A DNA stretch of 64,000 nucleotides from Cyanophyceae cyanobacterium (GCA_050331735.1 JBHJGN010000019.1:32001-96000); one strand, 5' to 3'; shown: positions 12,953 to 58,434, counted from the stretch's first letter. Notes: generated by a model not told the origin, from the sequence alone. Translations and numbers: made by a program.

Positions 12953-13384
12953 ATGATCGGAGAAGTTGGAGAGCAGCTAGTGGCGCAGTGGCTTAAGGCT
13001 CAGGGATGGATGATTTTACAACGTCGTTGGCGCTGTCGCTGGGGAGAAATCGATCTCATTGCTCAAAAGGCTACCCAAATTGCCTTTGTTGAGGTGAAAA
13101 CTCGCAAGGCTCAAAATTTAGATGCTGACGGTCTTTTGGCTATTACTCCTCATAAGCAAGCGAAATTGCAGCGCACCGCCGCCCTATTCTTGGCCAAACA
13201 TGCTCGTTTAGCAGAGTTCTCCTGTCGGTTTGATGTCGCTTTGGTCACTTACCAACGGCTGCCGTTGCGCCAGCGGTCATCGGCAGCAAACACCACTCCA
13301 CCTAAAGCAATGTCGTGGCAGGATCGCCAGCTTACTCTCCAAAGCTATATAGAATCAGCCTTTGACGGAGAGGGTATTTCTTAA
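12953..13384 (+). CDS. YraN (UPF0102) family endonuclease-like protein
   Basis: GEIDLIA, FVEVKTR, RFDVA motifs. Confidence 0.9.
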   Translation: MIGEVGEQLVAQWLKAQGWMILQRRWRCRWGEIDLIAQKATQIAFVEVKTRKAQNLDADGLLAITPHKQAKLQRTAALFLAKHARLAEFSCRFDVALVTYQRLPLRQRSSAANTTPPKAMSWQDRQLTLQSYIESAFDGEGIS

Positions 13385-13919
13385 GGGAGATGCGATGAAC
13401 CTTCCATTATGATATCAATTCTTTACGATACGATTACTCTGTTTTAGCATCAAAAACTCAATGCTCAACTATTTTTTCAATTCCCATCCCAGATCCAATC
13501 CTGAGCAAAACTCATAATCCTTCCGTGATAGAGACAGTCCATTGCAGAACTGATATTATCGTTCATTGAGCGGTTGTTGCCAATTCCGCTTAGCTCAATA
13601 CGGCGTTGAGATCGTACCGCTGGGGTTTAATGTTATGCCTAACATCACCGATCTGATTTTAAAAGTCTTTTACACAGCCACTGTTAAACTTTGTGCTCTT
13701 TGAAGATAAAACCTACGTTAATTTGTTTTTTGTCGATTTTGGTGGCTTGGAGAGCGGTTTTAATCTTTATTATTTCTATGCAATTTTAACGAATGGTTCT
13801 TGATTAATGTTGTGTTATTGTATTGTTTGCCAAATTAAGATGAGCCAGTTCAGGACTAAAACGGGCGAAGCTAATTTCTGGAACGGGCAGGAATCAGATT
13901 GAATTGATGTGCCGACTCT

Positions 13920-14186
13920 ATGAGTAAACTGTTGTTGAAGCTTTATGTCACTGGACAATCAAGCCGTTCTGGACAGGCAATTTCTAACCTTCATCGCATT
14001 TGTGAAGAAGAATTTCCGGATCAATACGAAATTATTGTTATTGACGTTCTTAAAGAACCTCAACTAGCAGAGGAAGACAAAGTTTTAGTGACTCCAACCT
14101 TAATTAAACAGCTTCCGCCACCATTAAAGCGACTAATTGGCGACCTGTCCGACAAGCAGAAGGTTTTGCTGGGTCTGAACATTTAA
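13920..14186 (+). CDS. kaiB: KaiB family protein (short, no acidic tail)
   Basis: LKLYVTG, IDVLKEPQLAEEDK..TPTL.K.LPPP..R.IGDLSD..KVL.GL KaiB signature. Confidence 0.93.
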   Translation: MSKLLLKLYVTGQSSRSGQAISNLHRICEEEFPDQYEIIVIDVLKEPQLAEEDKVLVTPTLIKQLPPPLKRLIGDLSDKQKVLLGLNI

Positions 14187-14232
14187 TCTCCCCTTACTGT
14201 CGATTTTTCTCTCCAAGCTCCATCATTGAAAT

Positions 14233-15765
14233 ATGAACGTCAATAGGAATCCGCCCCAAAAATACACCGTTGAAAAGCTGCAAACGGGTATTCCCGGTTT
14301 TGATACCGTTGCTGATGGCGGCTTACCTAGTCATAGCGCGACTCTAGTGGCCGGAACAACAGGCAGTGCTAAGACAGTTCTGGCCTGTCAGTATCTCGCT
14401 GCCGGCATTACGCAGTTCGATCAGCCCGGGGTATTAGTAACGTTTGAAGAAGCTCCTCGGCAGATTTGCCACTATATGAGTGGCTTCGGCTGGACTATTC
14501 AACAATGGGAAGCCCAAGGAAAATGGTCTTTTGTCGATGCCTCTCCAGAGGCGGGAGAGAAGCCAGTCGTGACAGGAGAGTACGAACTCGCTCCAATACT
14601 GGCTAGAATTGAACATGCGATTAACAAGGTTGGGGCTAAACGTCTTGCTGTTGATGCTCTTGGCGCTATTTTTTCCTACTTTAGCGATCCTGCTCAGATT
14701 CGGAGCGAGATGTATCGGATTGCCTCTACCGTCAAAGAATTAGGAGTAACAACTCTGATTACTGCCGAACGGAGTCATGAATATGGTAACGTGAGCCGCT
14801 ACGGAATGGAAGAGTTCGTCGCTGATAACGTGATTATTCTCCGAAACATTTTAGAGGAAGAGAAACGGCGGCGATCGCTAGAAATTCTCAAATTCAGAGG
14901 CTCTAACCATCAAAAAGGAGAATTTCCGTTCTCTGTCCTCGCTGGCTCTGGAATTGAGGTGGTGCCGCTCTCAACTTTAGAATACGAACAAGAATCCACC
15001 GCCATGCGCATTCCTTCAGGAATTGAGGAATTGGACAATATGTGCGGCGGCGGTTTTTTCCGAGATTCCGTCGTTTTAGTATCAGGAGCAACCGGAACCG
15101 GAAAAACGCTAATTGTCACTCAGTTTTTGAATGGCGGTATTGAACATCAGGAGCGCTGTTTACTATTTGCTTTTGAAGAAAGACGAGAACAGCTTTATCG
15201 CAACGCCAGGGGATGGGGCGTAGATTTTGCCGCCGCTGAAACAGCCAACCGATTAAAAATTGTCTGTCGCTCTCCTGAAGCAACGGGCCTAGAAGAACAT
15301 CTCATTGTCATTAAAGATATCATCAATCGCTATCAGCCCAATCGCGTCGCCATCGATAGCCTCTCTGCCCTAGAGCGAACGGCCCCAGAACGGGCGTTTC
15401 GGCAATTTATCATTAGCATTACGGCTTTTGTCAAATCTAAAAAAATGACTGGTATTTTCACCTCTAATACTTCGAGTCTGCTTGGCGGTTCCTCAGTAAC
15501 AGATGCTCATATTTCCACCATTACAGATTCTATTATTCTGCTGCGCTACGTTGAAGTTTTTGGGGGAATGCGTCGGGGAATTGTGGTGTTGAAAATGCGC
15601 GGCTCCGACCACGACAAGGATATTCGGGAGTTTCAGATTGTTAACAAGCAAGGAATGAAAATTGGTCATCCATTTCAGCAGATTGCGGGAATTTTGACCG
15701 GTAACTTTACCTACATTACGGCGAGTGAAGAGGCGCGTCTCAATCAGATGTTTAGCTCGGACTGA
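14233..15765 (+). CDS. kaiC: Double-domain KaiC family ATPase/autokinase (non-canonical paralogue)
   Basis: Two RecA-like domains (AGTTGSAKT; SGATGTGKT), FEE in both, HISTITDS phosphosite motif, KMRGS.HDK.IREF. Confidence 0.95.
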   Translation: MNVNRNPPQKYTVEKLQTGIPGFDTVADGGLPSHSATLVAGTTGSAKTVLACQYLAAGITQFDQPGVLVTFEEAPRQICHYMSGFGWTIQQWEAQGKWSFVDASPEAGEKPVVTGEYELAPILARIEHAINKVGAKRLAVDALGAIFSYFSDPAQIRSEMYRIASTVKELGVTTLITAERSHEYGNVSRYGMEEFVADNVIILRNILEEEKRRRSLEILKFRGSNHQKGEFPFSVLAGSGIEVVPLSTLEYEQESTAMRIPSGIEELDNMCGGGFFRDSVVLVSGATGTGKTLIVTQFLNGGIEHQERCLLFAFEERREQLYRNARGWGVDFAAAETANRLKIVCRSPEATGLEEHLIVIKDIINRYQPNRVAIDSLSALERTAPERAFRQFIISITAFVKSKKMTGIFTSNTSSLLGGSSVTDAHISTITDSIILLRYVEVFGGMRRGIVVLKMRGSDHDKDIREFQIVNKQGMKIGHPFQQIAGILTGNFTYITASEEARLNQMFSSD

Positions 15766-15778
15766 GTAATGGGAATCG

Positions 15779-18127
15779 ATGCAGACGACTAAAATTCTGT
15801 TGATTGAAGACGACCGAGAAGATGTCGAACTTGTTGCAGAGCTGTTGCAGGAGCTGCCGCAGGCGCGAATTCAGCTTGAGAGTTCTAGGTCTCTGGCTCA
15901 AGGACTTGAGCGATTGGCAAAAGGGCAAATCGATGTCGTTTTTTTGGATTTATCGCTACCGGATGCTCAGGGACTGGGGATCTGCCGCCAGGTGCAGGCT
16001 CAAGAGCCGCACCTGCCCATAATTATCCTCAGCGGGCTAGACGATGAAGAGGTGGCGATCGCCGCTCTCCAGGAAGGCGCTCAGGATTATTTAGTCAAAG
16101 GAAAATTTGACAGCTATTCATTTGTCAAAGCGATTCGCTACAGCATTGAGCGCAAGCGCCTTCAGCTCGCTATGAAGCAGCAAAACGCTGCCGTTAAAAC
16201 TAGCGAGGAGCAGTTTCGCTCTTTAATCAACCGCAATGCTGATGCGATGCTGGTGGTCAATTCTCAAGGAGTGATTCAGTTTGCCAATCCAGCCGTCGCA
16301 GAGCTGTTTGACCGTCGAACCCAAAATTTGATCGGCAGAGAGTTTGGGTTTCCCCTAGTGACTGGGGAAAGCACTGAAATAGATATTGTGCGCCAGACAG
16401 AAGTGATTACGGCAGAAATGCGGCTTGCTGAAATCACCTGGGAGGGAGAGTCGGCCTATCTGGCCTCGCTCCGGGACATCACCTGGCGCAAGCAAGCAGA
16501 AACAACGCTCAAGCGGCTGAACGATAATTTAGAAACTCAAGTTTCGGAACGAACCGTCGCTCTCAAACAAACTAACAAGCAGTTGTTAACTGAAATCACC
16601 GAACGCCAGCGCTCTGAAGCATTACTGCGAACTGTGGTTACCGGAGCTCCAATTATTCTCTGGTCTGTTAACCGGGAAGGCACGATTACTTTAGCCGAAG
16701 GCAAAGGATTAGCGGCACTGGCTCTGAAGCCGGAAGCCATTGTGGGACGCTCGATTTTTGAATTTTCCCGTCTCTATCCAGAAATGAGCGAAAAACACCG
16801 TCGGGTTCTGGCTGGTGCCGAAACTCAGTGGCGTGTCGAAATCAATCAGCTAGTCTACGAGTGTCGGGCCACACCGATCGCTCGCCAGGGAACTGTCGTT
16901 GGTTTGATTGGAGTAGCGACAGATATCACCGAGCGTGTTTTAGCTGAAACTCAGCGCGATAAGCTGTTGGAGAGTGAAAGGACAGCTCGGGAAGAAGCAG
17001 AGCAGGCCAACCGCCTTAAAGACGAATTTCTAGCGGTGCTTTCCCACGAACTGAGAACGCCGCTGAATCCGATTGTCGGCTGGACGAGTCTCCTCCGCAA
17101 AGGAAACGTTAGCGCTGAACAAACCGAACGCGCTCTCGAAACAATTGAGCGCAACGCTCAGCTACAGACTCAACTCATAGACGATCTGCTCGATATCAGC
17201 CGGATTTTGCGAGGCAAGCTTCAGCTTCAGAGCCTGCCTCTAAAGCTGCCCCCAATTATTGAAGCGGCGATCGAGACGGTTCGCCTAGCAGCGCAGGCTA
17301 AATCAATTCAGATTGTCACTAATTATCAGAGTCGCGAAGAGACGATTTTAGGAGATCCAGACCGTTTGCAGCAGGTGGTGTGGAACCTCTTAACAAATGC
17401 GGTTAAATTTACCCCTGCTGGCGGTCAAATTACCGTTCAGCTTTTCAAACGCGACTCCCGCATGACGCTACAGGTTGTCGATACGGGCAACGGCATCGAC
17501 CAACAGTTTATTCCCTACCTGTTTGATAAATTTCGCCAAGAGAACAGTAGTACCACCCGAACTTTCGGAGGCTTAGGGTTAGGGTTAGCGATTGTCAGAC
17601 ATCTAGTCGAGCTGCATGGAGGAACCGTCTCAGCTCAGAGCTTGGGTAAAGGCCAAGGCTCAACATTTACAGTCAATCTCCCCCGGATTCAACAACCGTT
17701 AGCCCCTAAAAAGCCCCCCAGTCTCCAGACTGACGGGCTCAGTTTGGAGGGAGTCCGCCTGCTAGTCGTGGATGACGAAGCAGATAGTTTAGAGATTACC
17801 ACTCTCTGGCTGGAACAACACGGTGCTCAGGTAACGGCTGTAACAAAAGCGCAGGAAGCCTTGACATCCTTTGACGCTGAACAGCCGGACGTACTCATTA
17901 GCGATATTGGCATGCCTGAAATCGACGGTAACGAGTTAATACAAACCATCCGGAGAAAATCGCTAGCAGCCGGAGGCAATATTAAGGCGATCGCCCTAAC
18001 TGCTTACGCAACGGAAGCCGATAAGCGAAAAATCCTCGCCGCTGGGTTTGATTGTCATCTGTCGAAGCCCATTAAACCGTCGCAGCTTATTACTCAGGTC
18101 GCTATGCTGGTGCGTAGATTTAGCTAG
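15779..18127 (+). CDS. Cytoplasmic hybrid histidine kinase REC-PAS-PAS-HisKA-HATPase-REC
   Basis: N-terminal receiver (LLIEDD, LDLSLPD), PAS ends (RDITWRK, TDITER), FLAVLSHELRTPL, GGLGLGL, C-terminal receiver; 13 nt after kaiC. Confidence 0.92.
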   Translation: MQTTKILLIEDDREDVELVAELLQELPQARIQLESSRSLAQGLERLAKGQIDVVFLDLSLPDAQGLGICRQVQAQEPHLPIIILSGLDDEEVAIAALQEGAQDYLVKGKFDSYSFVKAIRYSIERKRLQLAMKQQNAAVKTSEEQFRSLINRNADAMLVVNSQGVIQFANPAVAELFDRRTQNLIGREFGFPLVTGESTEIDIVRQTEVITAEMRLAEITWEGESAYLASLRDITWRKQAETTLKRLNDNLETQVSERTVALKQTNKQLLTEITERQRSEALLRTVVTGAPIILWSVNREGTITLAEGKGLAALALKPEAIVGRSIFEFSRLYPEMSEKHRRVLAGAETQWRVEINQLVYECRATPIARQGTVVGLIGVATDITERVLAETQRDKLLESERTAREEAEQANRLKDEFLAVLSHELRTPLNPIVGWTSLLRKGNVSAEQTERALETIERNAQLQTQLIDDLLDISRILRGKLQLQSLPLKLPPIIEAAIETVRLAAQAKSIQIVTNYQSREETILGDPDRLQQVVWNLLTNAVKFTPAGGQITVQLFKRDSRMTLQVVDTGNGIDQQFIPYLFDKFRQENSSTTRTFGGLGLGLAIVRHLVELHGGTVSAQSLGKGQGSTFTVNLPRIQQPLAPKKPPSLQTDGLSLEGVRLLVVDDEADSLEITTLWLEQHGAQVTAVTKAQEALTSFDAEQPDVLISDIGMPEIDGNELIQTIRRKSLAAGGNIKAIALTAYATEADKRKILAAGFDCHLSKPIKPSQLITQVAMLVRRFS

Positions 18128-46017: not shown

Positions 46018-49017
46018 TTAGGGTAGTTGAGTCGAGGCTAGCTGACTGTAGGATTGGGTAACGGCGACCGAGCTCTCAGAAAGCTGTTTGGCCACGTCTG
46101 CGACTTCTAGAAGCGAGCGGTTGGCAACGCTTGCCGTCTGTTCTCCTAGCGTAGCCGATTGAGTAACTTGCTCGAGGAGTAAACTGAGGTGGTCGCTGAT
46201 GGCAACTAGCTGCGTCAGCTTGTGCTTTGTTTCTTCAACCGAGCGCGTTCCGGCAACTGCCTGCTGAGTGCCCGCCCTCATCGCTGCCACCACTGCCTGG
46301 TTTTCTGAGCGAATTTCGGTAATGCGCGGATCAATCTGGGCGATATTCGTGTTTAGCTGTCGCGTCAAGGCGATAATTTTCTGAGCAATGGCGGAAAATT
46401 CCTCGCCATTCTCGCCGAGTCGGGCAGCCTCGAGAGAGGCATTCGTAGCGTGGAGCTTCAGTTGAGACGTAATACTGCTCACCAGGGGCACCATCTGAGC
46501 TAGTTTCTGCAATAACGGGTCAAGGTCTTCTGCGCGGTCGGCAGCCTCATCTGCTGTTCTATGGATTCCTCCGAGGTCTTCGAGCGCTAAACTCAAGGTT
46601 TCTTGTCCGGGCCGGAGGAGCTGAGCGAGCTGTTCGTTTTGACTGTCTGCCTGACGCGTTAGGGCGATCGCCTCTCGCACCGCATCCATGACCTCTCGCA
46701 TCTGGCTATAAACGGTTGTTACCAACTCCATCTGACCCGCTGCCTCGTCTGCTATTCCCGTCATCGCGGCTTCGCTCCTGTGCAGCAGTTGGGTAACCTG
46801 CCGCGCGAGGGTTTCTTTCTGCTGGCGCTGTTGGTGGGAATCGGCCTGGGCCAAATCGCAGGCTTGCTGAACCTGAGCTAGCAGCCGAGCGTGATCGAGC
46901 GCAAATCCCACCTGGGTTGCCACTTGCGCAAACAGATCGATGTCCGTCTGCTGCCAAGAGCGAGGACCAGAACACTGATGAGCAATCAGTAACCCAAACA
47001 GGCGAGCATCTTTTAAAATCGGAGCCACGAGATTGGCTTTGACCGCTAGAGGCTCTAGCTGCCCCAGATAGCATTCTGTCAGATTGGCTTCATAAATATT
47101 GCTAATAGCGTGGACTCGGCCAGCACGATACTTCTCAACATAGCCTTCCTCAAAGCAGGGATCTTTGAGGTGGCGCTGGAGTGCTTTTGGCCAGCCAGGA
47201 AGCACTGCTTCGGCGACTACCGTTCCATACCAGTCTTCATCGAACTCATACACAATGACGCGGTCAGTTCTCAACGCTTTGCGAACTTCTCCTACCGTCG
47301 TTTTGAGAATATCCGCTTCTACTAACGATGCTCGGATGTGCCGAATAATTGAGGAGAACATCTGAGAGCGCGCTCCCTGAGTATCAACTCGCTGAAGTAG
47401 CCTCGCCTGATCCAGGGCAAAACCGACTTGGGAGGCAATTTGGGCAAAGAAATCGATCTCCGACTGCTGCCAATTTCTTGGCCAGGAGCATTGGTGCGCA
47501 ATCAGTAAGCCAAAGAGCTGATTTCCTTTGAGGATCGGTGCAACAAGGTTCGCTTTGACGGCAAAGGGTTCTAGCTGACGCAGATAGCACTCGGTTAAGT
47601 TAGCTTCATAGATGTTGTTGAGGGCATGAACTCGCCCGTTTTGATATTCATCGATGTAGCCTTCGGCAAAGCAGGGGTCTTTGATACTTGCCTGGAGTGC
47701 TTTTGGCCAGCCAGGAAGCACCGATTCGGCAACCACCGTTCCGTACCAGTTTTCGTCAAATTCATACACGATCGCGCGGTCAGCTCTCAGCGCTTTACGG
47801 ACTTCAATGACGGTCGTTTTAAGGATCTCGTCTTCGTAGAGAGATTCACGAATGCTGCGGGCAATTTGAATGAAAAGTTGAGCGCGATTGGCTTCGGCAT
47901 CTACTCGTCCTAACACTTGGGCGTAGGTCAAAGCGAAACCAGCCTGGGAAGCGACTTGAGCTAATAGATCAATGTCCAACTGTTGCCAAAAGCGAGGCTC
48001 GCTACAGTGATGAGCCATCAGCAACCCAAATAGCTGATTGTTTTTAAAGATGGGGGCAGAGAGACTAGCTTGGACAGCCAGTTGGTGGAGCGCTTCATGT
48101 TCCTCCTCGCTAATGCTCAGTTGAGCAACGTTGTCTACGACGAGAATTTTTCCCTGACGGTACTGCTCAATTTCTGCTGTGGAATAAGGGATTTGAATCG
48201 TTCTCGTTCCAATTTTCGGCAACCCAGGAACGGCTGATTCGGCAATGAACGTGCCAGTGTTGGTGTCTAAGCGAAGGATGACCACTCGCTCGGTATGGAG
48301 AGCTTTACGAACCTCATCAACAATCGTTTTTAAGACGTTCTCCTCCGAGAGAGACTCCCAGATACGGCGAGTCAGTTCTAAAACAAGCTGCGATCGCTCT
48401 GCTGCTTGATTCTGTTGCTTGAGGAGTTCTGTCAACTGTGCTTCTACTAGATGAGTATTGGTGGTCAATGTCGCCAGCTCATCTGCGGATCTGGTCGAAC
48501 TTTGACTTTGACGCAGCCGCTTAACGGTTTTAGCGGAGGCCTCAGCGGCGTCGAGGACGGGGCGAAGAGTTCGATAAACCAACAACAGAGCAACGACTCC
48601 CGCTAGAGTCGCGGTGGCTCCGGTTCCGAGCAATAGCAGAAATAGCTGCTGCTGGAGAGCAAATTCTGTTTCTTGCCAATCTAACGCGGTGGGCTCTGCT
48701 TGCTCAATCTGCTGTTCAATAGATTGGGAACTGACGTAGAAAACACTACCAACCACCAGCACTGGCAGCGTACTGACGGCTAGCGCCCAGGCGGTCGCCT
48801 TCTTTCTTAAACTCCACTGGCGCCGAGGAGAGTTGGACGCTGGTACGGCCCACGGAGAACGCTGCATTGTCGAGGTGGCGGCTGAGCGCTCGCTGGCGCT
48901 CGTCTGCTCGTGTCTATTTTGTGGCTCAGATTCAGCAGACTCGCCTGTAAAATGAGCCGCAGCAGCGACAGATTTAAGATTTTTCAGGGCTGGCTGAGAA
49001 TTGTGGTGATTGTCCAT
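46018..49017 (-). CDS. Cyanobacteriochrome methyl-accepting chemotaxis-like protein (2 TM, 3 GAF, MCP-like tail; PixJ-like)
   Basis: GAF2 and GAF3 carry KDPCF...LTECY; GAF1 lacks both Cys; C-terminal NASLEAAR.GE.G. Confidence 0.87.
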   Translation of the reverse strand: MDNHHNSQPALKNLKSVAAAAHFTGESAESEPQNRHEQTSASERSAATSTMQRSPWAVPASNSPRRQWSLRKKATAWALAVSTLPVLVVGSVFYVSSQSIEQQIEQAEPTALDWQETEFALQQQLFLLLLGTGATATLAGVVALLLVYRTLRPVLDAAEASAKTVKRLRQSQSSTRSADELATLTTNTHLVEAQLTELLKQQNQAAERSQLVLELTRRIWESLSEENVLKTIVDEVRKALHTERVVILRLDTNTGTFIAESAVPGLPKIGTRTIQIPYSTAEIEQYRQGKILVVDNVAQLSISEEEHEALHQLAVQASLSAPIFKNNQLFGLLMAHHCSEPRFWQQLDIDLLAQVASQAGFALTYAQVLGRVDAEANRAQLFIQIARSIRESLYEDEILKTTVIEVRKALRADRAIVYEFDENWYGTVVAESVLPGWPKALQASIKDPCFAEGYIDEYQNGRVHALNNIYEANLTECYLRQLEPFAVKANLVAPILKGNQLFGLLIAHQCSWPRNWQQSEIDFFAQIASQVGFALDQARLLQRVDTQGARSQMFSSIIRHIRASLVEADILKTTVGEVRKALRTDRVIVYEFDEDWYGTVVAEAVLPGWPKALQRHLKDPCFEEGYVEKYRAGRVHAISNIYEANLTECYLGQLEPLAVKANLVAPILKDARLFGLLIAHQCSGPRSWQQTDIDLFAQVATQVGFALDHARLLAQVQQACDLAQADSHQQRQQKETLARQVTQLLHRSEAAMTGIADEAAGQMELVTTVYSQMREVMDAVREAIALTRQADSQNEQLAQLLRPGQETLSLALEDLGGIHRTADEAADRAEDLDPLLQKLAQMVPLVSSITSQLKLHATNASLEAARLGENGEEFSAIAQKIIALTRQLNTNIAQIDPRITEIRSENQAVVAAMRAGTQQAVAGTRSVEETKHKLTQLVAISDHLSLLLEQVTQSATLGEQTASVANRSLLEVADVAKQLSESSVAVTQSYSQLASTQLP

Positions 49018-49575
49018 TGAACGTTCGTGGTTGGAAAGTCGGTGCTGAGGGTGCTGGGTATAGCTTCAGTCAACAGAAAAGCAAGAGGGCAGTGCGGATG
49101 GAGTTGAGTCGTCAAAGAGCCTTATCATCAATACTAATCGATGCTAGAGTCAGTCAGATGTTCGCTCGAGCGGCAATGTGCAGATTTTTTAGAGAGCTTT
49201 TTCAGCGGTAATTGTTTTCTGGGGCAATCATCTGCTCGATCTGGGGGTCAGCGGCTGCTAGTCGAGCGTAAGCTCCCCTGGAGTTTCCAAACCAGTAAGT
49301 TTACGCTGATAATCTTCAATAGAGAGCGATCCGGCTTGAGAAAACCGTGACTGTTGCTCCCACAATTCCCAAAAATAAGTCATTGTTGCTGGCTGAGATT
49401 CTGGTGAAGCCGTTTAACTGGGGAGAATTCTGGTAGAGTCAGCGAGTGAGTCAAACACCAACTTCTGATAGAATTGTAGTGAAATCGAATTTTAGCTCAG
49501 TAGCAAAGCTCAGTCGTTTTTGCCGTCGGTTCCTCAAAGCGCTTTCAAATTAGGCAGACGTAGCCGGGAAGTATA

Positions 49576-50010
49576 GTGATTGACCCCCCAACAATTTTGC
49601 TAGTAGAAGATGATTCTAACGATGTTTTGTTGATAGAGCGGGCTTTCCGGAAGGCAAACGTCAATACTCAAATTGAGATTGTGGCCGATGGCGATGAGGC
49701 GATCGCCTATCTAACGCAGCAGTCACTCGCTCGAAGCGACGCTCTGCCAGCACTCGTTCTCCTCGATCTCAAACTGCCCCGTCGTAGCGGGTTAGAAGTT
49801 CTAGAATGGGTTAGACAACAGCCCCTTTTGAAGCGACTGCTGGTAGTGGTATTAACCTCTTCTCGAGAAAGTCCAGATATTGCTCGGGCCTACGATTTGG
49901 GAGTCAACTCGTATTTGGTTAAGCCGGTTGTTTTTGACGATTTAGTAATTCTAGCCACCTATATTCATCAGTACTGGCTTGACTGCAACGAACAACCAAC
50001 CTTTTTTTGA
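49576..50010 (+). CDS. Single-domain response regulator (Rcp1-like)
   Basis: ILLVEDD, LLDLKLP, VLTSS, AYDLGVNSYLVKP, YW. Confidence 0.92.
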   Translation: MIDPPTILLVEDDSNDVLLIERAFRKANVNTQIEIVADGDEAIAYLTQQSLARSDALPALVLLDLKLPRRSGLEVLEWVRQQPLLKRLLVVVLTSSRESPDIARAYDLGVNSYLVKPVVFDDLVILATYIHQYWLDCNEQPTFF

Positions 50011-50136
50011 AGGGGCAGCAGTGACTGTGCTGTAGGGACGGTGTTGGTTCCCTCAGTAATGGCTGGTATAATCTGGCTAGAAGCATTGTTGGTGCGACCG
50101 GACCATCAACCCCTGTGAATAAAGTCTGTTGGCCTG

Positions 50137-52095
50137 ATGACTGAACTGAAGCTGCTGCTCATTGACGACAACGCAGACGACCGGGCTCTAGCGTTGCGGG
50201 AGCTAAAGCAGGAATTTTCTGAGCTTCAGGCCACCGAGGTCTATAGCCCAGAGAACCTGAATCACGCTCTTCAGCGCGGGGATTTCCAGCTTGCGATTAC
50301 CGATTATCAATTACGCTGGACAACGGGGCTGGAGGTGTTGGAAGTGCTGAAAAAGCGCTACCCTCACTGTCCCGTGATTATGTTTACCGGGACGGGCAGT
50401 GAAGAAATTGCCGTCAAAGCGATGAAAGCAGGGCTAGATGATTACGTCATCAAATCTCCTCAGCATTTTATTCGTCTAGCCTCAGCCGTACGCTTAGTCT
50501 GGGAGCGGGAGCAGCAGCGCCAAGCTCTGCAAGAAGCAGAAAACCGCTACCAGCGGCTGTTTGAAGGCGTTCCGATTGGGCTTTATCGTCTCACCCCTGA
50601 CGGACAGATCCTGGAAGCCAACAGCATGCTCGTTCACCTGTTAGGCTACGCCAACCGACAGGAGTTGAGCGCCGGAAAAGCAATTGAGCGACACTTAGAG
50701 CCGCGGTATCGTCAGCATTGGCGATCGCAGATGAAAGCGCAAGGAGCCGTACAGGGATTGGAAACCCCCCTGAAGCGCTGTGATGGTTCGCAGATTTGGG
50801 TGATCCATAGCGCGAGAGCCATTAAAGATGAACAGGAGCGTCTGCTGTATTACGAGGGAGCAGTCCAAGATATTACAGAACGGAAGCAATCGGAGCAAGA
50901 GCGAGCTCAACTGCTCAGCAGCGAACAAGAAGCGCGGGTGGAGGCGGAGGCGGCGAACCGTTTAAAAGATGAATTTTTGGCAACGCTGTCCCACGAACTG
51001 CGCACTCCCCTCAACAGCATTTTTGGCTGGATTCAGCTACTGCGCCGCCAGAAATTGGGAGCTAAACAAACTGCCCAAGCGCTAGAGATCATCGAGCGCA
51101 ACGCTAAGGCGCAAATTCAGTTGATTGACGATTTGCTAGATGTTTCGCGGATCATTCGAGGCCGGATGGAGCTCAATCTCGTTCCCGTTGACCTGACCGC
51201 GATCGTCAAATCGGCCCTGGATACAGTTCGTCCGGCGGCCCAAGCTAAAAACATTCAGCTACGGACGGGATACCCAGAGCGAGCGTGTTTTGTAGCTGGA
51301 GATCTCGACCGCCTTCAGCAAGTTTTCTGGAACCTGCTCGTCAACGCGATCAAGTTTACGTCTGAAGGCGGTTCAGTGACAGTTTTAGTAAAGGCGCAGC
51401 CGAATAGCGCTCTGATTCAGGTATGCGATACGGGGAAAGGCATCGACACTCAGCTACTGCCCCACATCTTTGAGCGGTTTCGTCAGCAAGATAGTACGTC
51501 TACCCGGACCCAGGGAGGACTGGGGTTGGGACTGGCAATCGTTCGTCATTTAGTTGAGCTTCATGGAGGAAAGGTCTGGGCAGATAGCCCAGGAATTCGA
51601 CAGGGAGCAACCTTCTCCGTACAGCTCCCGCTTAATCGTCAGTCTCATCCGCCAATCGCTCCCCAAACCAGAGGAATGCCCGCTCTTAACAACTGCCGGG
51701 TTCTGATCGTCGAAGACGACGAGGACGCCCGGACTTTAATTGCTCTAGTCCTTCGAGAATGCGGGGCCGACGTCACCGCCGTTGGTTCAGTGACCGAGGC
51801 GCTAGCAGCTGTTGAGTGCCGCTCGCCCCACGTCATCGTCAGCGATATTGCCATGCCGTCAGCAGACGGCTATGACCTCATGCGCCGGATTCGCAAGCGT
51901 CAGCGAGCGAATTCCTCCACTATTCCCGCAATCGCCGTCACGGCTTACGGTCGGGTAGAAGATCAGCAAAAAACTCAAGAGGCCGGATTTCAGATTCACT
52001 TAACGAAGCCAGTAGACGCGCTTCAACTGGCAGAAGCCGTCGCCAGTTTAACCCCTCAGCACAACGGACCAGCGAGCGCAGATCAGCCTTTTTAA
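50137..52095 (+). CDS. Hybrid histidine kinase REC-PAS-HisKA-HATPase-REC
   Basis: N-terminal receiver, PAS/PAC (QDITERK), FLATLSHELRTPL, GGLGLGL, C-terminal receiver. Confidence 0.92.
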   Translation: MTELKLLLIDDNADDRALALRELKQEFSELQATEVYSPENLNHALQRGDFQLAITDYQLRWTTGLEVLEVLKKRYPHCPVIMFTGTGSEEIAVKAMKAGLDDYVIKSPQHFIRLASAVRLVWEREQQRQALQEAENRYQRLFEGVPIGLYRLTPDGQILEANSMLVHLLGYANRQELSAGKAIERHLEPRYRQHWRSQMKAQGAVQGLETPLKRCDGSQIWVIHSARAIKDEQERLLYYEGAVQDITERKQSEQERAQLLSSEQEARVEAEAANRLKDEFLATLSHELRTPLNSIFGWIQLLRRQKLGAKQTAQALEIIERNAKAQIQLIDDLLDVSRIIRGRMELNLVPVDLTAIVKSALDTVRPAAQAKNIQLRTGYPERACFVAGDLDRLQQVFWNLLVNAIKFTSEGGSVTVLVKAQPNSALIQVCDTGKGIDTQLLPHIFERFRQQDSTSTRTQGGLGLGLAIVRHLVELHGGKVWADSPGIRQGATFSVQLPLNRQSHPPIAPQTRGMPALNNCRVLIVEDDEDARTLIALVLRECGADVTAVGSVTEALAAVECRSPHVIVSDIAMPSADGYDLMRRIRKRQRANSSTIPAIAVTAYGRVEDQQKTQEAGFQIHLTKPVDALQLAEAVASLTPQHNGPASADQPF

Positions 52096-56476: not shown

Positions 56477-57310
56477 ATGAGAGCTGAACTAGCCAGAATT
56501 AAGGACTACTACCCAAACTACAAAGACGAAGTGTTTGGCGGAGAAGACATTATTGGATACAGTGTCTACAGTGACAATAACGACAAAATCGGAGAAGTCC
56601 ACGACATTATCGTAGATGATACTGGACGTTTGCGTTATTTCGTCATCGATACCGGATTTTGGGTCTTTGGGAAAAAAGTCCTGTTACCTATCGGCAGAGC
56701 TAAGACCGATTTCAATCAAAACCGCATCTATGCGACAGGAATGACGGAAGAACAGGCCAAGAATTTGCCAGAGTACAATGAGAACACCGCTCTTGATTAC
56801 GATTACGAAGAGAGAGTGAGGGGGGCGTATAGAACGCCAGCAACTCAGCCTACTCGGACTAGCTACAGCCGTGAGAATTATAGCTACGATTACGATCCTA
56901 GTCTTTACGACCTGAACGAAGCTGACCACTCTACGCTCAGGCTGTACGAGGAAAGGTTGGTTGCCAACAAGAATCGCTACAAAGCTGGTGAAGTTGCCGT
57001 TGGCAAAAGAGTTGAAACGGAAACGGCTCAAGTGGCTGTCCCGGTAGAAAAGGAAAGAGTTGTGATCGAACGCACTAACCCGACCGATACGACTCCAGTT
57101 GCTCCTGGTTCCACCGACTTCCGCGAAGGGGAAGTGGCTCGTGTGGAAGTGTATGAAGAAACGGCTGAAGTTAACAAGCAAGCTTTTGTTCGGGAAGAGG
57201 TTAGCGTCAGAAAAGAGGTAGACCGAGACACCGTTACGGCCAAAGAGCAAATTCGCCGCGAAGAACTAGAGGTAGATGTAGACGGTAAGCCCAACGTCAA
57301 AGACGTCTAG
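56477..57310 (+). CDS. PRC-barrel + DUF2382 (YsnF/AvaK-like) protein
   Basis: RYFVIDTGFW.FGKKVLLPIG; LYEERLVA.K.R.K.GEV.VGKRVETE; VREEV.VRKE. Confidence 0.9.
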   Translation: MRAELARIKDYYPNYKDEVFGGEDIIGYSVYSDNNDKIGEVHDIIVDDTGRLRYFVIDTGFWVFGKKVLLPIGRAKTDFNQNRIYATGMTEEQAKNLPEYNENTALDYDYEERVRGAYRTPATQPTRTSYSRENYSYDYDPSLYDLNEADHSTLRLYEERLVANKNRYKAGEVAVGKRVETETAQVAVPVEKERVVIERTNPTDTTPVAPGSTDFREGEVARVEVYEETAEVNKQAFVREEVSVRKEVDRDTVTAKEQIRREELEVDVDGKPNVKDV

Positions 57311-57336
57311 AGCGGCTGATTTCTCCAGACGATCGA

Positions 57337-57363
57337 AAGCAGAGTCCGCCATAGACTCTGCTT
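57337..57363 (+). terminator. Hairpin downstream of first DUF2382 gene
   Basis: AAGCAGAGTC-cgccata-GACTCTGCTT. Confidence 0.55.
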
Positions 57364-57484
57364 CGAGGTACGAGGAAAGCATTCATAGAACTGGCTTGAG
57401 TGCGCTCAACGCAGCGCCTAGAAACGCTTCGAGGTGAAGCTTTATGTTCTGAGAATGTTCAAGTCCCTCAGCTAAGTGCGACTC

Positions 57485-57528
57485 TCCATCATTGGTCAGA
57501 TGAACAGCTTGTCCGTCGTTTCTACTAT
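57485..57528 (+). promoter_or_regulatory. Island motif site plus -10
   Basis: TCCATC-ATTG-GTCAGA, 22 nt, TACTAT. Confidence 0.6.
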
Positions 57529-57564
57529 TTTTACTAAACGTCATTTATTGGGAATATACAACTT

Positions 57565-58434
57565 ATGTCTCTAGTTAAAATTGCTGATTATTATCCAGAC
57601 TACAAAAGCAGAGTATTTGATGGCGAAGATGTTATTGGGTACAGCGTTTACAACGAGAAAGAGGAAAAGCTCGGGGACGTCCATGAAATTCTTCTAGACG
57701 AACAGGGACGCTTCCGCTACTTTGTCATTGATACAGGCTTTTGGATCTTTGGGAAAAAGGTGCTGATGCCAGTGGGCCGAACTCGCATGGATTTTGCTCG
57801 TCGTCGGGTTTATGCAATGGGAATGACCCACGAGCAAGCAGAAGCTCTCCCAGAATATCGTGAAAATACGGTTGTCGATTACGACTACGAAGAGCAGGTC
57901 AGAGAAACTTACCGTCCTAGCGTTGCTCAAACCGATCGCCCGACAGCATCTACTGGAGAAGGGGTCGGAACGAGCCGCCGTGAACCCACTCGTGACAACT
58001 ACAGCTACGATGATGACCCAGACCTCTATGGCCTCAACGAGCAGAATCATGAAAAGCTAAAGCTATACGAAGAGCGTTTAGTGGCGGATAAAGACCGCTA
58101 TAAAGCTGGTGAAGTTTCCGTGGGCAAGAGAGTTGAAACAGAAACAGCAGAGGTTTCCGTTCCGGTCGAAAAAGAACGGGTCGTCATTGAGCGTAAATCC
58201 CCAACTGATGCTACACCAACAACGCCAGGAACGGCTGATTTTAGGGAAGGAGAAGTAGCTCGTATGGAGGTTTATGAAGAATCGGCTGATGTCGAAAAAC
58301 AAGCCTTTGTTCGGGAGGAAGTTAAAGTTAGAAAAGAGGTAGACCGAGAAACTGTTGCAACCGAGGAAACGGTCCGTCGAGAAGAGTTAGACGTTGATGT
58401 AGTAGAAGGAAAGCCGAACGTCAAAGACCTGTAA
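57565..58434 (+). CDS. PRC-barrel + DUF2382 protein, tandem paralogue
   Basis: Colinear and highly similar to 56477-57310. Confidence 0.9.
   Translation: MSLVKIADYYPDYKSRVFDGEDVIGYSVYNEKEEKLGDVHEILLDEQGRFRYFVIDTGFWIFGKKVLMPVGRTRMDFARRRVYAMGMTHEQAEALPEYRENTVVDYDYEEQVRETYRPSVAQTDRPTASTGEGVGTSRREPTRDNYSYDDDPDLYGLNEQNHEKLKLYEERLVADKDRYKAGEVSVGKRVETETAEVSVPVEKERVVIERKSPTDATPTTPGTADFREGEVARMEVYEESADVEKQAFVREEVKVRKEVDRETVATEETVRREELDVDVVEGKPNVKDL

Follow-up and report, generated by a model that had tools for sequence, protein, structure and literature searches.

Gene content of the cluster and the Kai modules of its genome

We analyzed a 64,000-nucleotide stretch of DNA (the window; GCA_050331735.1, JBHJGN010000019.1:32001-96000), which belongs to contig C19 of a cyanobacterial genome of 5.57 Mb, and focused on a cluster of three genes encoding KaiB, KaiC, and a hybrid histidine kinase (Table 1). 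A first-pass annotation, made from the sequence alone, had placed the three genes on one strand, with gaps of 46 nt between kaiB and kaiC and 13 nt between the kaiC stop and the kinase start, behind a gene-free leader of 535 nt; these coordinates were confirmed. The nearest upstream open reading frame (ORF) of at least 60 amino acids (aa) is a UPF0102/YraN gene (12953-13384), and psaA and psaB lie just downstream. Scanning the leader for ORFs gave nothing longer than 47 aa. An Rfam scan for RNA elements in the leader and the cluster returned zero matches at E ≤ 1. One promoter-like site was found in the leader (13531-13559, plus strand), and no terminator-like site was found on the plus strand between 13920 and 18127; neither type of scan exceeded what shuffled sequence gives. 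The kaiB-kaiC pair and the kinase gene probably belong to one predicted transcript.

Three two-domain KaiC genes were counted in the genome, on contigs C56, C16, and C19, which bore out the expectation that the window KaiC is not the only copy. The C56 gene stands in a kaiA-kaiB-kaiC cluster that holds the sole Pfam KaiA match genome-wide; the reported absence of kaiA from the window was thus correct. On C16, a PAS kinase (805 aa), a receiver protein (290 aa, KaiA3-like; see below), kaiB, kaiC (507 aa), and a hybrid kinase (627 aa) follow each other on one strand. Because C56 and C16 each hold another Kai module, the C19 cluster is the third of the genome, where the annotation had called it a second. 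The composition of C16, C19, and C56 is typical for the genome, and a binning artefact is therefore disfavored as the source of this multiplicity.

Table 1. Coordinates of the genes, domains, and loci discussed (numbers without a prefix are window positions)
Feature	Location	Strand	Basis
kaiB, KaiB3 class, 88 aa, no C-terminal tail	13920..14186	+	Pfam KaiB, tail comparison
kaiC, KaiC3 class, 510 aa	14233..15765	+	Pfam, NCBIfam, tree, motif columns
Hybrid histidine kinase, 782 aa	15779..18127	+	Pfam, NCBIfam
Leader 5' of kaiB, 535 nt, AT-rich, GC 0.38	13385..13919	.	ORF, Rfam, and tblastn scans
Kinase, N-terminal receiver, residues 1-135	15779..16183	+	Alignment
Kinase, PAS1, residues 136-262, Kai-linked PAS subfamily	16184..16564	+	Genome and locus comparisons
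Kinase, PAS2 (Pfam PAS_4), residues 291-387, not Kai-linked	16649..16939	+	Pfam
Kinase core, HisKA (residues 414-476) and HATPase_c (residues 525-636)	17018..17686	+	Pfam
Kinase, C-terminal receiver, residues 662-774	17762..18100	+	Pfam, alignment
kaiA-kaiB-kaiC module	C56		Pfam KaiA
Second KaiC3-class cluster	C16:70240-77502 (= L015:4240-11502)	-	
kaiB-kaiC-kinase cluster of the window	C19	+	
REC-PAS1-PAS-KaiA3 fusions	L113:201-2003, L138:5928-7568, L139:814-2430		

A KaiB3-KaiC3 pair without a linked KaiA3

The window KaiB matched Pfam PF07689 with 100.3 bits (cut-off, 27) and stayed below both NCBIfam cut-offs for canonical KaiB (105.7 against 110 and 104.1 against 145), as expected for a class other than KaiB1; its identity to the KaiB of loci with a KaiA3-type gene was 57 to 68%. 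It stops right after the conserved residues G-L-N-I, with 0 residues beyond them against a median of 10, and none of the other 72 KaiB3-class sequences compared is as short, so that the missing C-terminal tail noted in the annotation was confirmed. The window KaiC scored 385 bits across two domains with Pfam PF06745 and exceeded both NCBIfam cut-offs for KaiC (NF006799 / TIGR02655; 664.9 bits against 408 and 578.9 against 546.25). It was 47 to 48% identical to the KaiC1 of its own genome, 51% to the C16 KaiC, and 60 to 63% to the KaiC of KaiA3-type loci, and its best match among 5.8 billion protein clusters reached 65% identity. Among structures in the PDB, the KaiC of Synechococcus elongatus scored 535 bits and that of Rhodobacter 304 bits.

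Phylogenetic analysis placed the window KaiC apart from canonical KaiC1, as the annotation had anticipated, and inside the KaiC3-type clade; it neither groups with the KaiC of kaiABC nor has an adjacent kaiA. In the tree (IQ-TREE, 125 rows, quick search, KaiC1 as outgroup to the KaiC3 clade; all supports are values of the Shimodaira-Hasegawa-like approximate likelihood ratio test [SH-aLRT] only), cyanobacterial KaiC3-type sequences formed one clade of 34 rows (support, 95) that falls into two parts. The first, an 11-row subclade (support, 98), holds the window KaiC with its sister P0002 (support, 95), Caldora, and Acaryochloris, and, via near-identical cluster members, also Lusitaniella coriacea and Acaryochloris thomasi. 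In the second, of 23 rows (support, 98), the C16 KaiC pairs with that of genome G034 (support, 99), together with KaiC of Gloeothece PCC 7424, Geminocystis, Microcystis, and Pleurocapsa. Placement was unchanged in a tree of 44 rows. Judged by this clade, to which loci with the order KaiA3-like-kaiB-kaiC also belong, the window KaiC is a member of the KaiC3 class. When 401 cyanobacterial genomes were surveyed, with at most three KaiC candidates scored per genome, 27 carried a KaiC3-class gene (E ≤ 1e-190 to P0002), and the genome studied here was the only one with two. None of the 401 held a near-identical match to P0002, the best reaching 75%.

Both FEE motifs (TFEE, 70-73; AFEE, 313-316) and the HISTIT phosphosites (S428/T429) that had been annotated in KaiC can be read from the sequence. 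The residues K47/T48, E72/E73, K291/T292, E315/E316, T423, and S428/T429 are all kept, at columns that are invariant or nearly so, and the predicted set of autokinase and ATPase residues is complete. The Walker A motif reads GTTGSAKT in the CI domain and GATGTGKT in CII. The former had been singled out as a variant, which it is; however, of the 120 best database matches, 118 have G..GS[A/S]KT, and GSAKT is shared by 73 of 80 related KaiC3-type loci (the best 80 of at least 572, found by two peptide patterns, close kin included). It is therefore a trait of the KaiC3 class and not of this locus, and only the T at its third position is unusual (1/120). The same holds for the C-terminus, which is short as annotated but typically so for KaiC3. 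In the C16 KaiC, the CI motif has reverted to GTAGTGKT.

Both KaiC3-class paralogs of the genome have evolved faster than any of 74 relatives. At 233 conserved columns (at least 90% identical among 76 KaiC3-class sequences), the window KaiC deviates 23 times and the C16 KaiC 34 times, the latter being the highest count of the 76, against a median of 4; the end branch of the window KaiC, at 0.95, is about four times as long as that of P0002 (0.25). One explanation for such divergence would be decay, with a functionless copy drifting after duplication or transfer and the kinase next to it by accident. The long branch, the lack of a close ortholog in the database search, the truncated kaiB, and a GC content at third positions (GC3) that is lower in kaiB (0.36) and kaiC (0.44) than in the kinase gene (0.52; genome mean, 0.52; standard deviation, 0.065; ORFs of at least 300 aa) would all be in keeping with it. 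Yet none of the three reading frames is disrupted, KaiC retains its full set of catalytic and phosphosite residues, the 23 deviating residues of KaiC are conservative changes, and KaiB departs from only 3 of 33 conserved columns (median, 2). The PAS1 domain of the kinase argues in the same direction: its end branch of 0.29 lies below the median of 0.35, and both PAS1 genes of the genome directly follow a KaiC3-class gene. We consider decay very improbable.

Among the 80 related loci, a gene with a KaiA3-type C-domain was present in 70 and stood directly upstream of kaiB-kaiC in 69. Six of the 10 loci without it are cut by a contig end no more than 750 nt from kaiC, and the remaining 4 (L119, L144, L147, and L161) form one Pseudomonadota clade; the KaiA3-less state is thus rare and derived. 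Within the subclade of the window KaiC, context is visible for two members, Caldora (L086) and Acaryochloris (L088); both keep the order KaiA3-like-kaiB-kaiC, from which we infer that the window locus has lost its KaiA3 gene. The gene upstream of the window kaiB is the UPF0102 gene and not KaiA3, as it would be in a KaiA3-KaiB3-KaiC3 system. A decayed KaiA3 in the leader was rejected, as a tblastn search with 85 KaiA3-like queries gave a best E value of only 0.03.

Several related loci differed in other respects. In three of the Pseudomonadota loci (L144, L147, and L161), kaiB-kaiC and a PAS-GGDEF gene are followed by a long KaiC-like gene (568 to 1009 aa). A Nitrospirota metagenome-assembled genome (MAG) (L114:3802-9509) and an unclassified MAG (L117:2443-7848) each carry a tandem of two complete KaiA3-like-kaiB-kaiC cassettes, the first KaiC of each tandem being 49% identical to the window KaiC and branching outside the main clade. 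In L115, L120, L124, L146, L165, and others, the KaiA3-type C-domain ends a protein of 596 to 659 aa without an N-terminal receiver.

The only KaiA3-like gene of the genome is the one on C16. Its 290-aa product shares 43 to 49% identity, over the full length, with the proteins encoded upstream of kaiB-kaiC in six cyanobacterial relatives. Loci of Roseiflexus are among those with a KaiA3-type gene in this position, and Roseiflexus has been named as a genus with kaiA3B3C3 synteny (Koebler 2024, PMC11372060). In Pfam, the 290-aa protein gave a weak match to RsbU_N (E = 0.009), and a PDB profile search with the KaiA3-like C-domain returned nothing relevant. On its architecture, its synteny, and its match with the Roseiflexus loci, we classify the protein as KaiA3-like.

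Across the sequences compared, the C-terminal tail of KaiC co-varies with KaiA3 presence. The motif E..R....F (E499/R502/F507 in the window KaiC) is found in 67 of the 76 KaiC3-class sequences, including the window KaiC, which ends 3 residues past F507. The whole tail is missing solely in the four KaiA3-less Pseudomonadota loci, and the KaiC of G034, whose locus also lacks KaiA3 (L055:4527-11948; kinase of 1029 aa, kaiB, kaiC, and a kinase of 649 aa with PAS1), is changed at 2 of the 3 motif residues. Binding of KaiA to the KaiC tail is established for KaiC1, and by analogy the KaiC3 tail is likely the contact for KaiA3. Its retention in the window KaiC argues either for the C16 protein acting in trans or for a very recent loss of KaiA3. 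In Synechocystis, KaiC3 autodephosphorylates when alone and is phosphorylated only with KaiA3, and kaiC3 is unlinked from kaiA3B3 (Koebler 2024, PMC11372060). The module had been annotated as self-contained. This is doubtful, given the KaiA3-like gene on C16 and the tail motif that has been kept.

A truly autonomous module would be a KaiA-free hourglass, in which KaiC would phosphorylate itself, KaiB and the ATP/ADP ratio would drive a single cycle for each day or each energy shift, and the kinase would be the dedicated output. Such timers, with KaiBC and a PAS kinase, have been described in purple bacteria (Ma 2016, PMC4794148). At the window locus, the lack of any KaiA or KaiA3 gene or remnant and the complete loss of the KaiB tail would agree with an hourglass, and the long branch and numerous deviations of KaiC would fit a change of regime. 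However, the window KaiC, at 510 aa, does not carry the extended C-terminus of KaiA-free KaiC2-type hourglasses, about 50 residues in Rhodobacter KaiC (568 aa, 8dba), and it retains the very motif that KaiA3-less lineages have lost. Moreover, Synechocystis KaiC3 stays dephosphorylated by itself (Koebler 2024, PMC11372060), and the genome does encode a KaiA3-like protein. Given the dependence of Synechocystis KaiC3 on KaiA3 and the retained tail motif, we favor stimulation by KaiA3 in trans and regard an autonomous hourglass as a serious but rather improbable alternative.

A kinase with a Kai-linked PAS domain

The protein encoded 13 nt behind kaiC has the architecture REC-PAS-PAS_4-HisKA-HATPase_c-REC (Pfam, NCBIfam), with Pfam scores of 64.1 bits for HisKA, 105.2 for HATPase_c, and 156 for Response_reg over two stretches. 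With HisKA, HATPase_c, and a C-terminal receiver, it is a hybrid histidine kinase. Its N-terminal receiver keeps the acidic pair, the phospho-acceptor Asp, and the Lys and is predicted to be phosphorylatable. The N-terminal receiver of the C16 downstream kinase retains neither the acidic pair nor the Lys and is thus a pseudo-receiver. No KaiB-like domain was detected by Pfam in the 782 residues of the window kinase, in agreement with the annotation; it is thus no SasA-type output kinase, and the true SasA equivalog (NF006800, 525 bits) is encoded by a separate gene on contig C4. Hpt domains numbered zero on the contig of the window and eight elsewhere in the genome. When the 401 cyanobacterial genomes were searched with the whole kinase, scoring 2 candidates in each, most of the matches were to the common HisKA-HATPase-REC core in unlinked proteins. 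Elsewhere in the window (46018-52095), a 999-aa GAF/phytochrome-like protein is encoded on the minus strand, and on the plus strand a single-domain receiver (49576-50010) precedes a further hybrid kinase (50137-52095) that shares 48% identity with the Kai-linked kinase core.

For a link between the kinase and the Kai genes, the informative part is the first PAS domain, PAS1. In its own genome, PAS1 has one good match, the PAS domain of the kinase that follows kaiC on C16 (43% identity, E = 3e-25), the next best being far weaker (29%, E = 8e-6); the only two PAS1 domains of the genome therefore each stand behind a KaiC3-class gene. A PAS1-like domain, with 33 to 53% identity, was found in 52 of the 80 related loci, where it was encoded directly after kaiC in 43, in an upstream gene in 5, and further downstream in 4, and the 43 loci span 12 phylum labels. 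PAS2, by comparison, had matches in 3 of the 80 loci. In three Chloroflexaceae MAG loci, REC-PAS1-PAS and a KaiA3-type C-domain are joined in one frame upstream of kaiB (Table 1). Scored against a PAS1 profile (178 bits, E = 2e-52), the window kinase falls into a group of Kai-linked PAS1 transducers that we define by sequence and position only and that is a working group, not a curated family. The top PDB match of the profile was the cytoplasmic PAS domain of WalK (E = 1e-12), which carries no functional hint, and full-text searches of the literature, supplements aside, found no description of the PAS1 subfamily. A PAS1 tree (110 columns) lacks the resolution to tell a vertical from a transferred origin of this domain in the kinase.

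The gene after kaiC was also examined irrespective of PAS1. Among the 80 loci, 71 candidate ORFs followed kaiC, and 63 of these were run through Pfam, leaving out seven of 98 to 213 aa (L090, L128, L148, L155, L159, L160, and L164) and one kaiB (L119). PAS and/or REC signaling proteins made up 46 of the 63 (38 histidine kinases, 4 GGDEF proteins, 2 PAS proteins truncated where a contig stops, and 2 REC or REC-PAS proteins), with 17 unrelated or unassigned. The recurrence of PAS1 behind kaiC supports a predicted functional coupling of the kinase with the Kai pair. Cyanobacterial cases of this adjacency were C16, C19, G034, G266, and 5 of 10 cyanobacterial MAG loci, and within the cyanobacteria it is a minority state. 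The linkage proposed in the annotation thus holds in that a kinase or PAS signaling gene recurs after kaiC, whereas this exact kinase is not kept in the nearest relatives.

Coupling could also run from the kinase to the clock. In that case the kinase would sense through a PAS domain or its N-terminal receiver and reset or gate KaiBC, perhaps as both input and output, as CikA is in the canonical clock. An input function would make use of the N-terminal receiver if it is phosphorylatable as predicted. A further histidine kinase stands directly upstream of the receiver-bearing KaiA3 in many related loci, an arrangement that points to phosphotransfer into Kai components as a common feature, and the three fusions join PAS1 to KaiA3, which is an oscillator component and not an output. 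The window locus, however, encodes no Kai component with a receiver that the kinase could phosphorylate. The hybrid architecture with its C-terminal receiver is typical of an outward phosphorelay, and the domains that follow PAS1 vary between loci (kinase, GGDEF), as they would for an output adaptor. We think an input role unlikely for the window kinase.

Proposed function and relation to known Kai systems

From the class membership of the pair, the three modules of the genome, the absence of KaiA3 at the locus, the intact residues, and the recurrent adjacency of kaiC and PAS1, all as read from sequence comparison, we propose that the window holds a third Kai module, in which a KaiA3-less KaiB3/KaiC3 pair with a PAS1 kinase is stimulated by the C16 KaiA3-like protein acting in trans. 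We give this reading a probability of roughly 0.55. KaiC would alternate between phosphorylated and unphosphorylated states with the help of KaiA3 in trans, and the tail-less KaiB would bind phosphorylated KaiC. The kinase would then read the KaiB-KaiC state through PAS1, for which the PAS domains of KidA on fold-switched KaiB are a precedent, and its C-terminal receiver would hand the signal to two partners encoded at other loci, an Hpt protein and a response regulator. The module would thus be a satellite of the KaiA3 system with an output kinase of its own.

Several observations weigh against this reading, some of them touching KaiA3 and the history of the cluster. The sequence evidence that the C16 protein is related to KaiA is weak: aligned with the genome's KaiA by hhalign, the KaiA3-like C-domain gave an E value of 0.01 and a probability of 4% (KaiA residues 217-305). 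This protein is also only 35 to 40% identical to the KaiA3 of the window KaiC's subclade, which makes cross-activation uncertain. The long branch of the window KaiC renders its placement in the tree less sure. When the KaiC of C19, C16, and G034, a group named only after inspection of the tree, were forced to be monophyletic, the constraint was only marginally rejected (difference in log likelihood, 32; P value of the approximately unbiased test, 0.041; 44 rows). The lower GC3 of kaiB and kaiC relative to the kinase gene is a weak hint of different histories, with the values of kaiB and kaiC both inside the spread of the genome.

Other such points concern the kinase. In Caldora and Acaryochloris, the nearest relatives whose context is visible, kaiC is not followed by a kinase gene, and PAS1 was absent near the KaiC3 loci of relatives in all 7 long flanks and all 12 flanks of 1.5 kb, G034 excepted. 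A PAS1-like domain (E ≤ 1e-30) turned up in 47 of the 401 cyanobacterial genomes. These comprise 22 of the 27 genomes that carry a KaiC3-class gene but also 25 of the 374 that do not; the contrast is inflated by kinship, and PAS1 is accordingly not exclusive to Kai loci. Most of the PAS1-like domains in these genomes belong to large sensor proteins of 1000 to 2000 aa encoded far from kaiC. The kinase core is 50 to 59% identical to many unlinked cyanobacterial hybrid kinases and is therefore not Kai-specific. The N-terminal receiver falls into a receiver subfamily of which KaiA3 is also a member. Its closest paralogs in the genome are those of a REC-HK protein (55%) and a REC-GAF-GGDEF protein (45%), both unlinked, ahead of the C16 KaiA3-like protein (42%), which weakens the idea that this receiver derives from KaiA3.

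The unlinked PAS1 sensor proteins are possible candidate partners of KaiA3B3C3 clocks. A broader generalization, which we offer as speculative and unlikely, is that PAS1 is a signaling adaptor of KaiC3-type clocks and that the genome runs three oscillators, each KaiC3-class one with a PAS1 kinase of its own. If this were true, the window module would either share the KaiA3 of C16 or do without one, PAS1 would recognize the fold-switched KaiB that sits on KaiC, and the unlinked PAS1 sensors found in 22 of the 27 KaiC3 genomes would provide the long-sought output of the KaiA3B3C3 clock of the Synechocystis type.

The nearest described counterpart is the KaiA3-KaiB3-KaiC3 system of Synechocystis PCC 6803, whose output is stated to be unknown (Koebler 2024, PMC11372060). 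The window cluster resembles it in the class of KaiC and KaiB, in the neighboring Ser/Thr phosphosites, in a CI Walker A motif with Ser-Ala before the Lys, in the presence of a canonical kaiA1B1C1 in the same cell, and in the lack of a SasA-type output. Unlike a Synechocystis-type system, the window locus has no KaiA3 (which 69 of the 80 related loci have directly upstream), carries a hybrid kinase after kaiC and a tail-less KaiB, and shares its genome with a second KaiC3-class copy. The operons of Rhodopseudomonas palustris and Rhodobacter sphaeroides likewise combine a KaiA-free kaiBC with a PAS sensor kinase (Ma 2016, PMC4794148), and for them, as for the window cluster, an hourglass or energy-driven timer has been proposed. 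Their KaiC, however, is of the KaiC2 type, and in Rhodobacter KaiC (568 aa; structures 8dba and 8fwi) a C-terminal extension, absent from the window KaiC, provides a hexamer-hexamer contact and allows KaiA-independent phosphorylation (Koebler 2024, PMC11372060); the gene order in purple bacteria is kaiC-kaiB-kinase and here kaiB-kaiC-kinase. A kinase or GGDEF/EAL protein directly after kaiC/kaiB was reported earlier, "except for cyanobacteria" (De Luca 2011, PMC3164672), and the linkage was noted again later (Kim 2022, PMC9478674). Our survey agrees with this linkage (kinase or GGDEF protein in 42 of the 63 post-kaiC ORFs) but departs from its exception, as the window cluster is cyanobacterial, and so are C16, G034, G266, and five MAG loci.

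For the readout itself, KidA of Synechococcus elongatus offers a precedent for PAS1 by analogy. Its PAS domains bind fold-switched KaiB, and PAS-mediated association with Kai proteins has been suggested to be general (Kim 2022, PMC9478674). KidA differs in being unlinked to kai genes, in ending in GGDEF-EAL, and in acting on the KaiABC1 clock. SasA is similar to the proposed role of the window kinase as a histidine kinase that reads the state of KaiC, but it docks through a KaiB-like N-terminal domain of the kind that the window kinase lacks.

KaiBC with a PAS kinase and KaiA3B3C3 have both been described, and the linkage outside the cyanobacteria has been in print since 2011; the gain is thus a testable variant and not a new principle. 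What is new is a KaiC3-class pair that has apparently lost KaiA3 and kept a PAS1 kinase alongside two other Kai systems, and full-text searches of the literature, supplements aside, found no cyanobacterial KaiC3-class pair with a kinase described. A kinase gene 13 nt behind a KaiC3-class kaiC is a concrete candidate partner for KaiB3-KaiC3 output, as is PAS1 more generally, which stands behind kaiC in loci from 12 phyla and in three loci forms part of a KaiA3 fusion protein. The genome moreover provides a natural experiment, with two KaiC3-class paralogs in one cell, one with and one without a linked KaiA3, and comparing the C16 and C19 paralogs could reveal the ways in which Kai modules escape cross-talk or make use of it.

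Apart from the Kai cluster, the window contains two adjacent paralogous genes with a YsnF/AvaK domain, encoding proteins of 277 and 289 aa (56477-58434).

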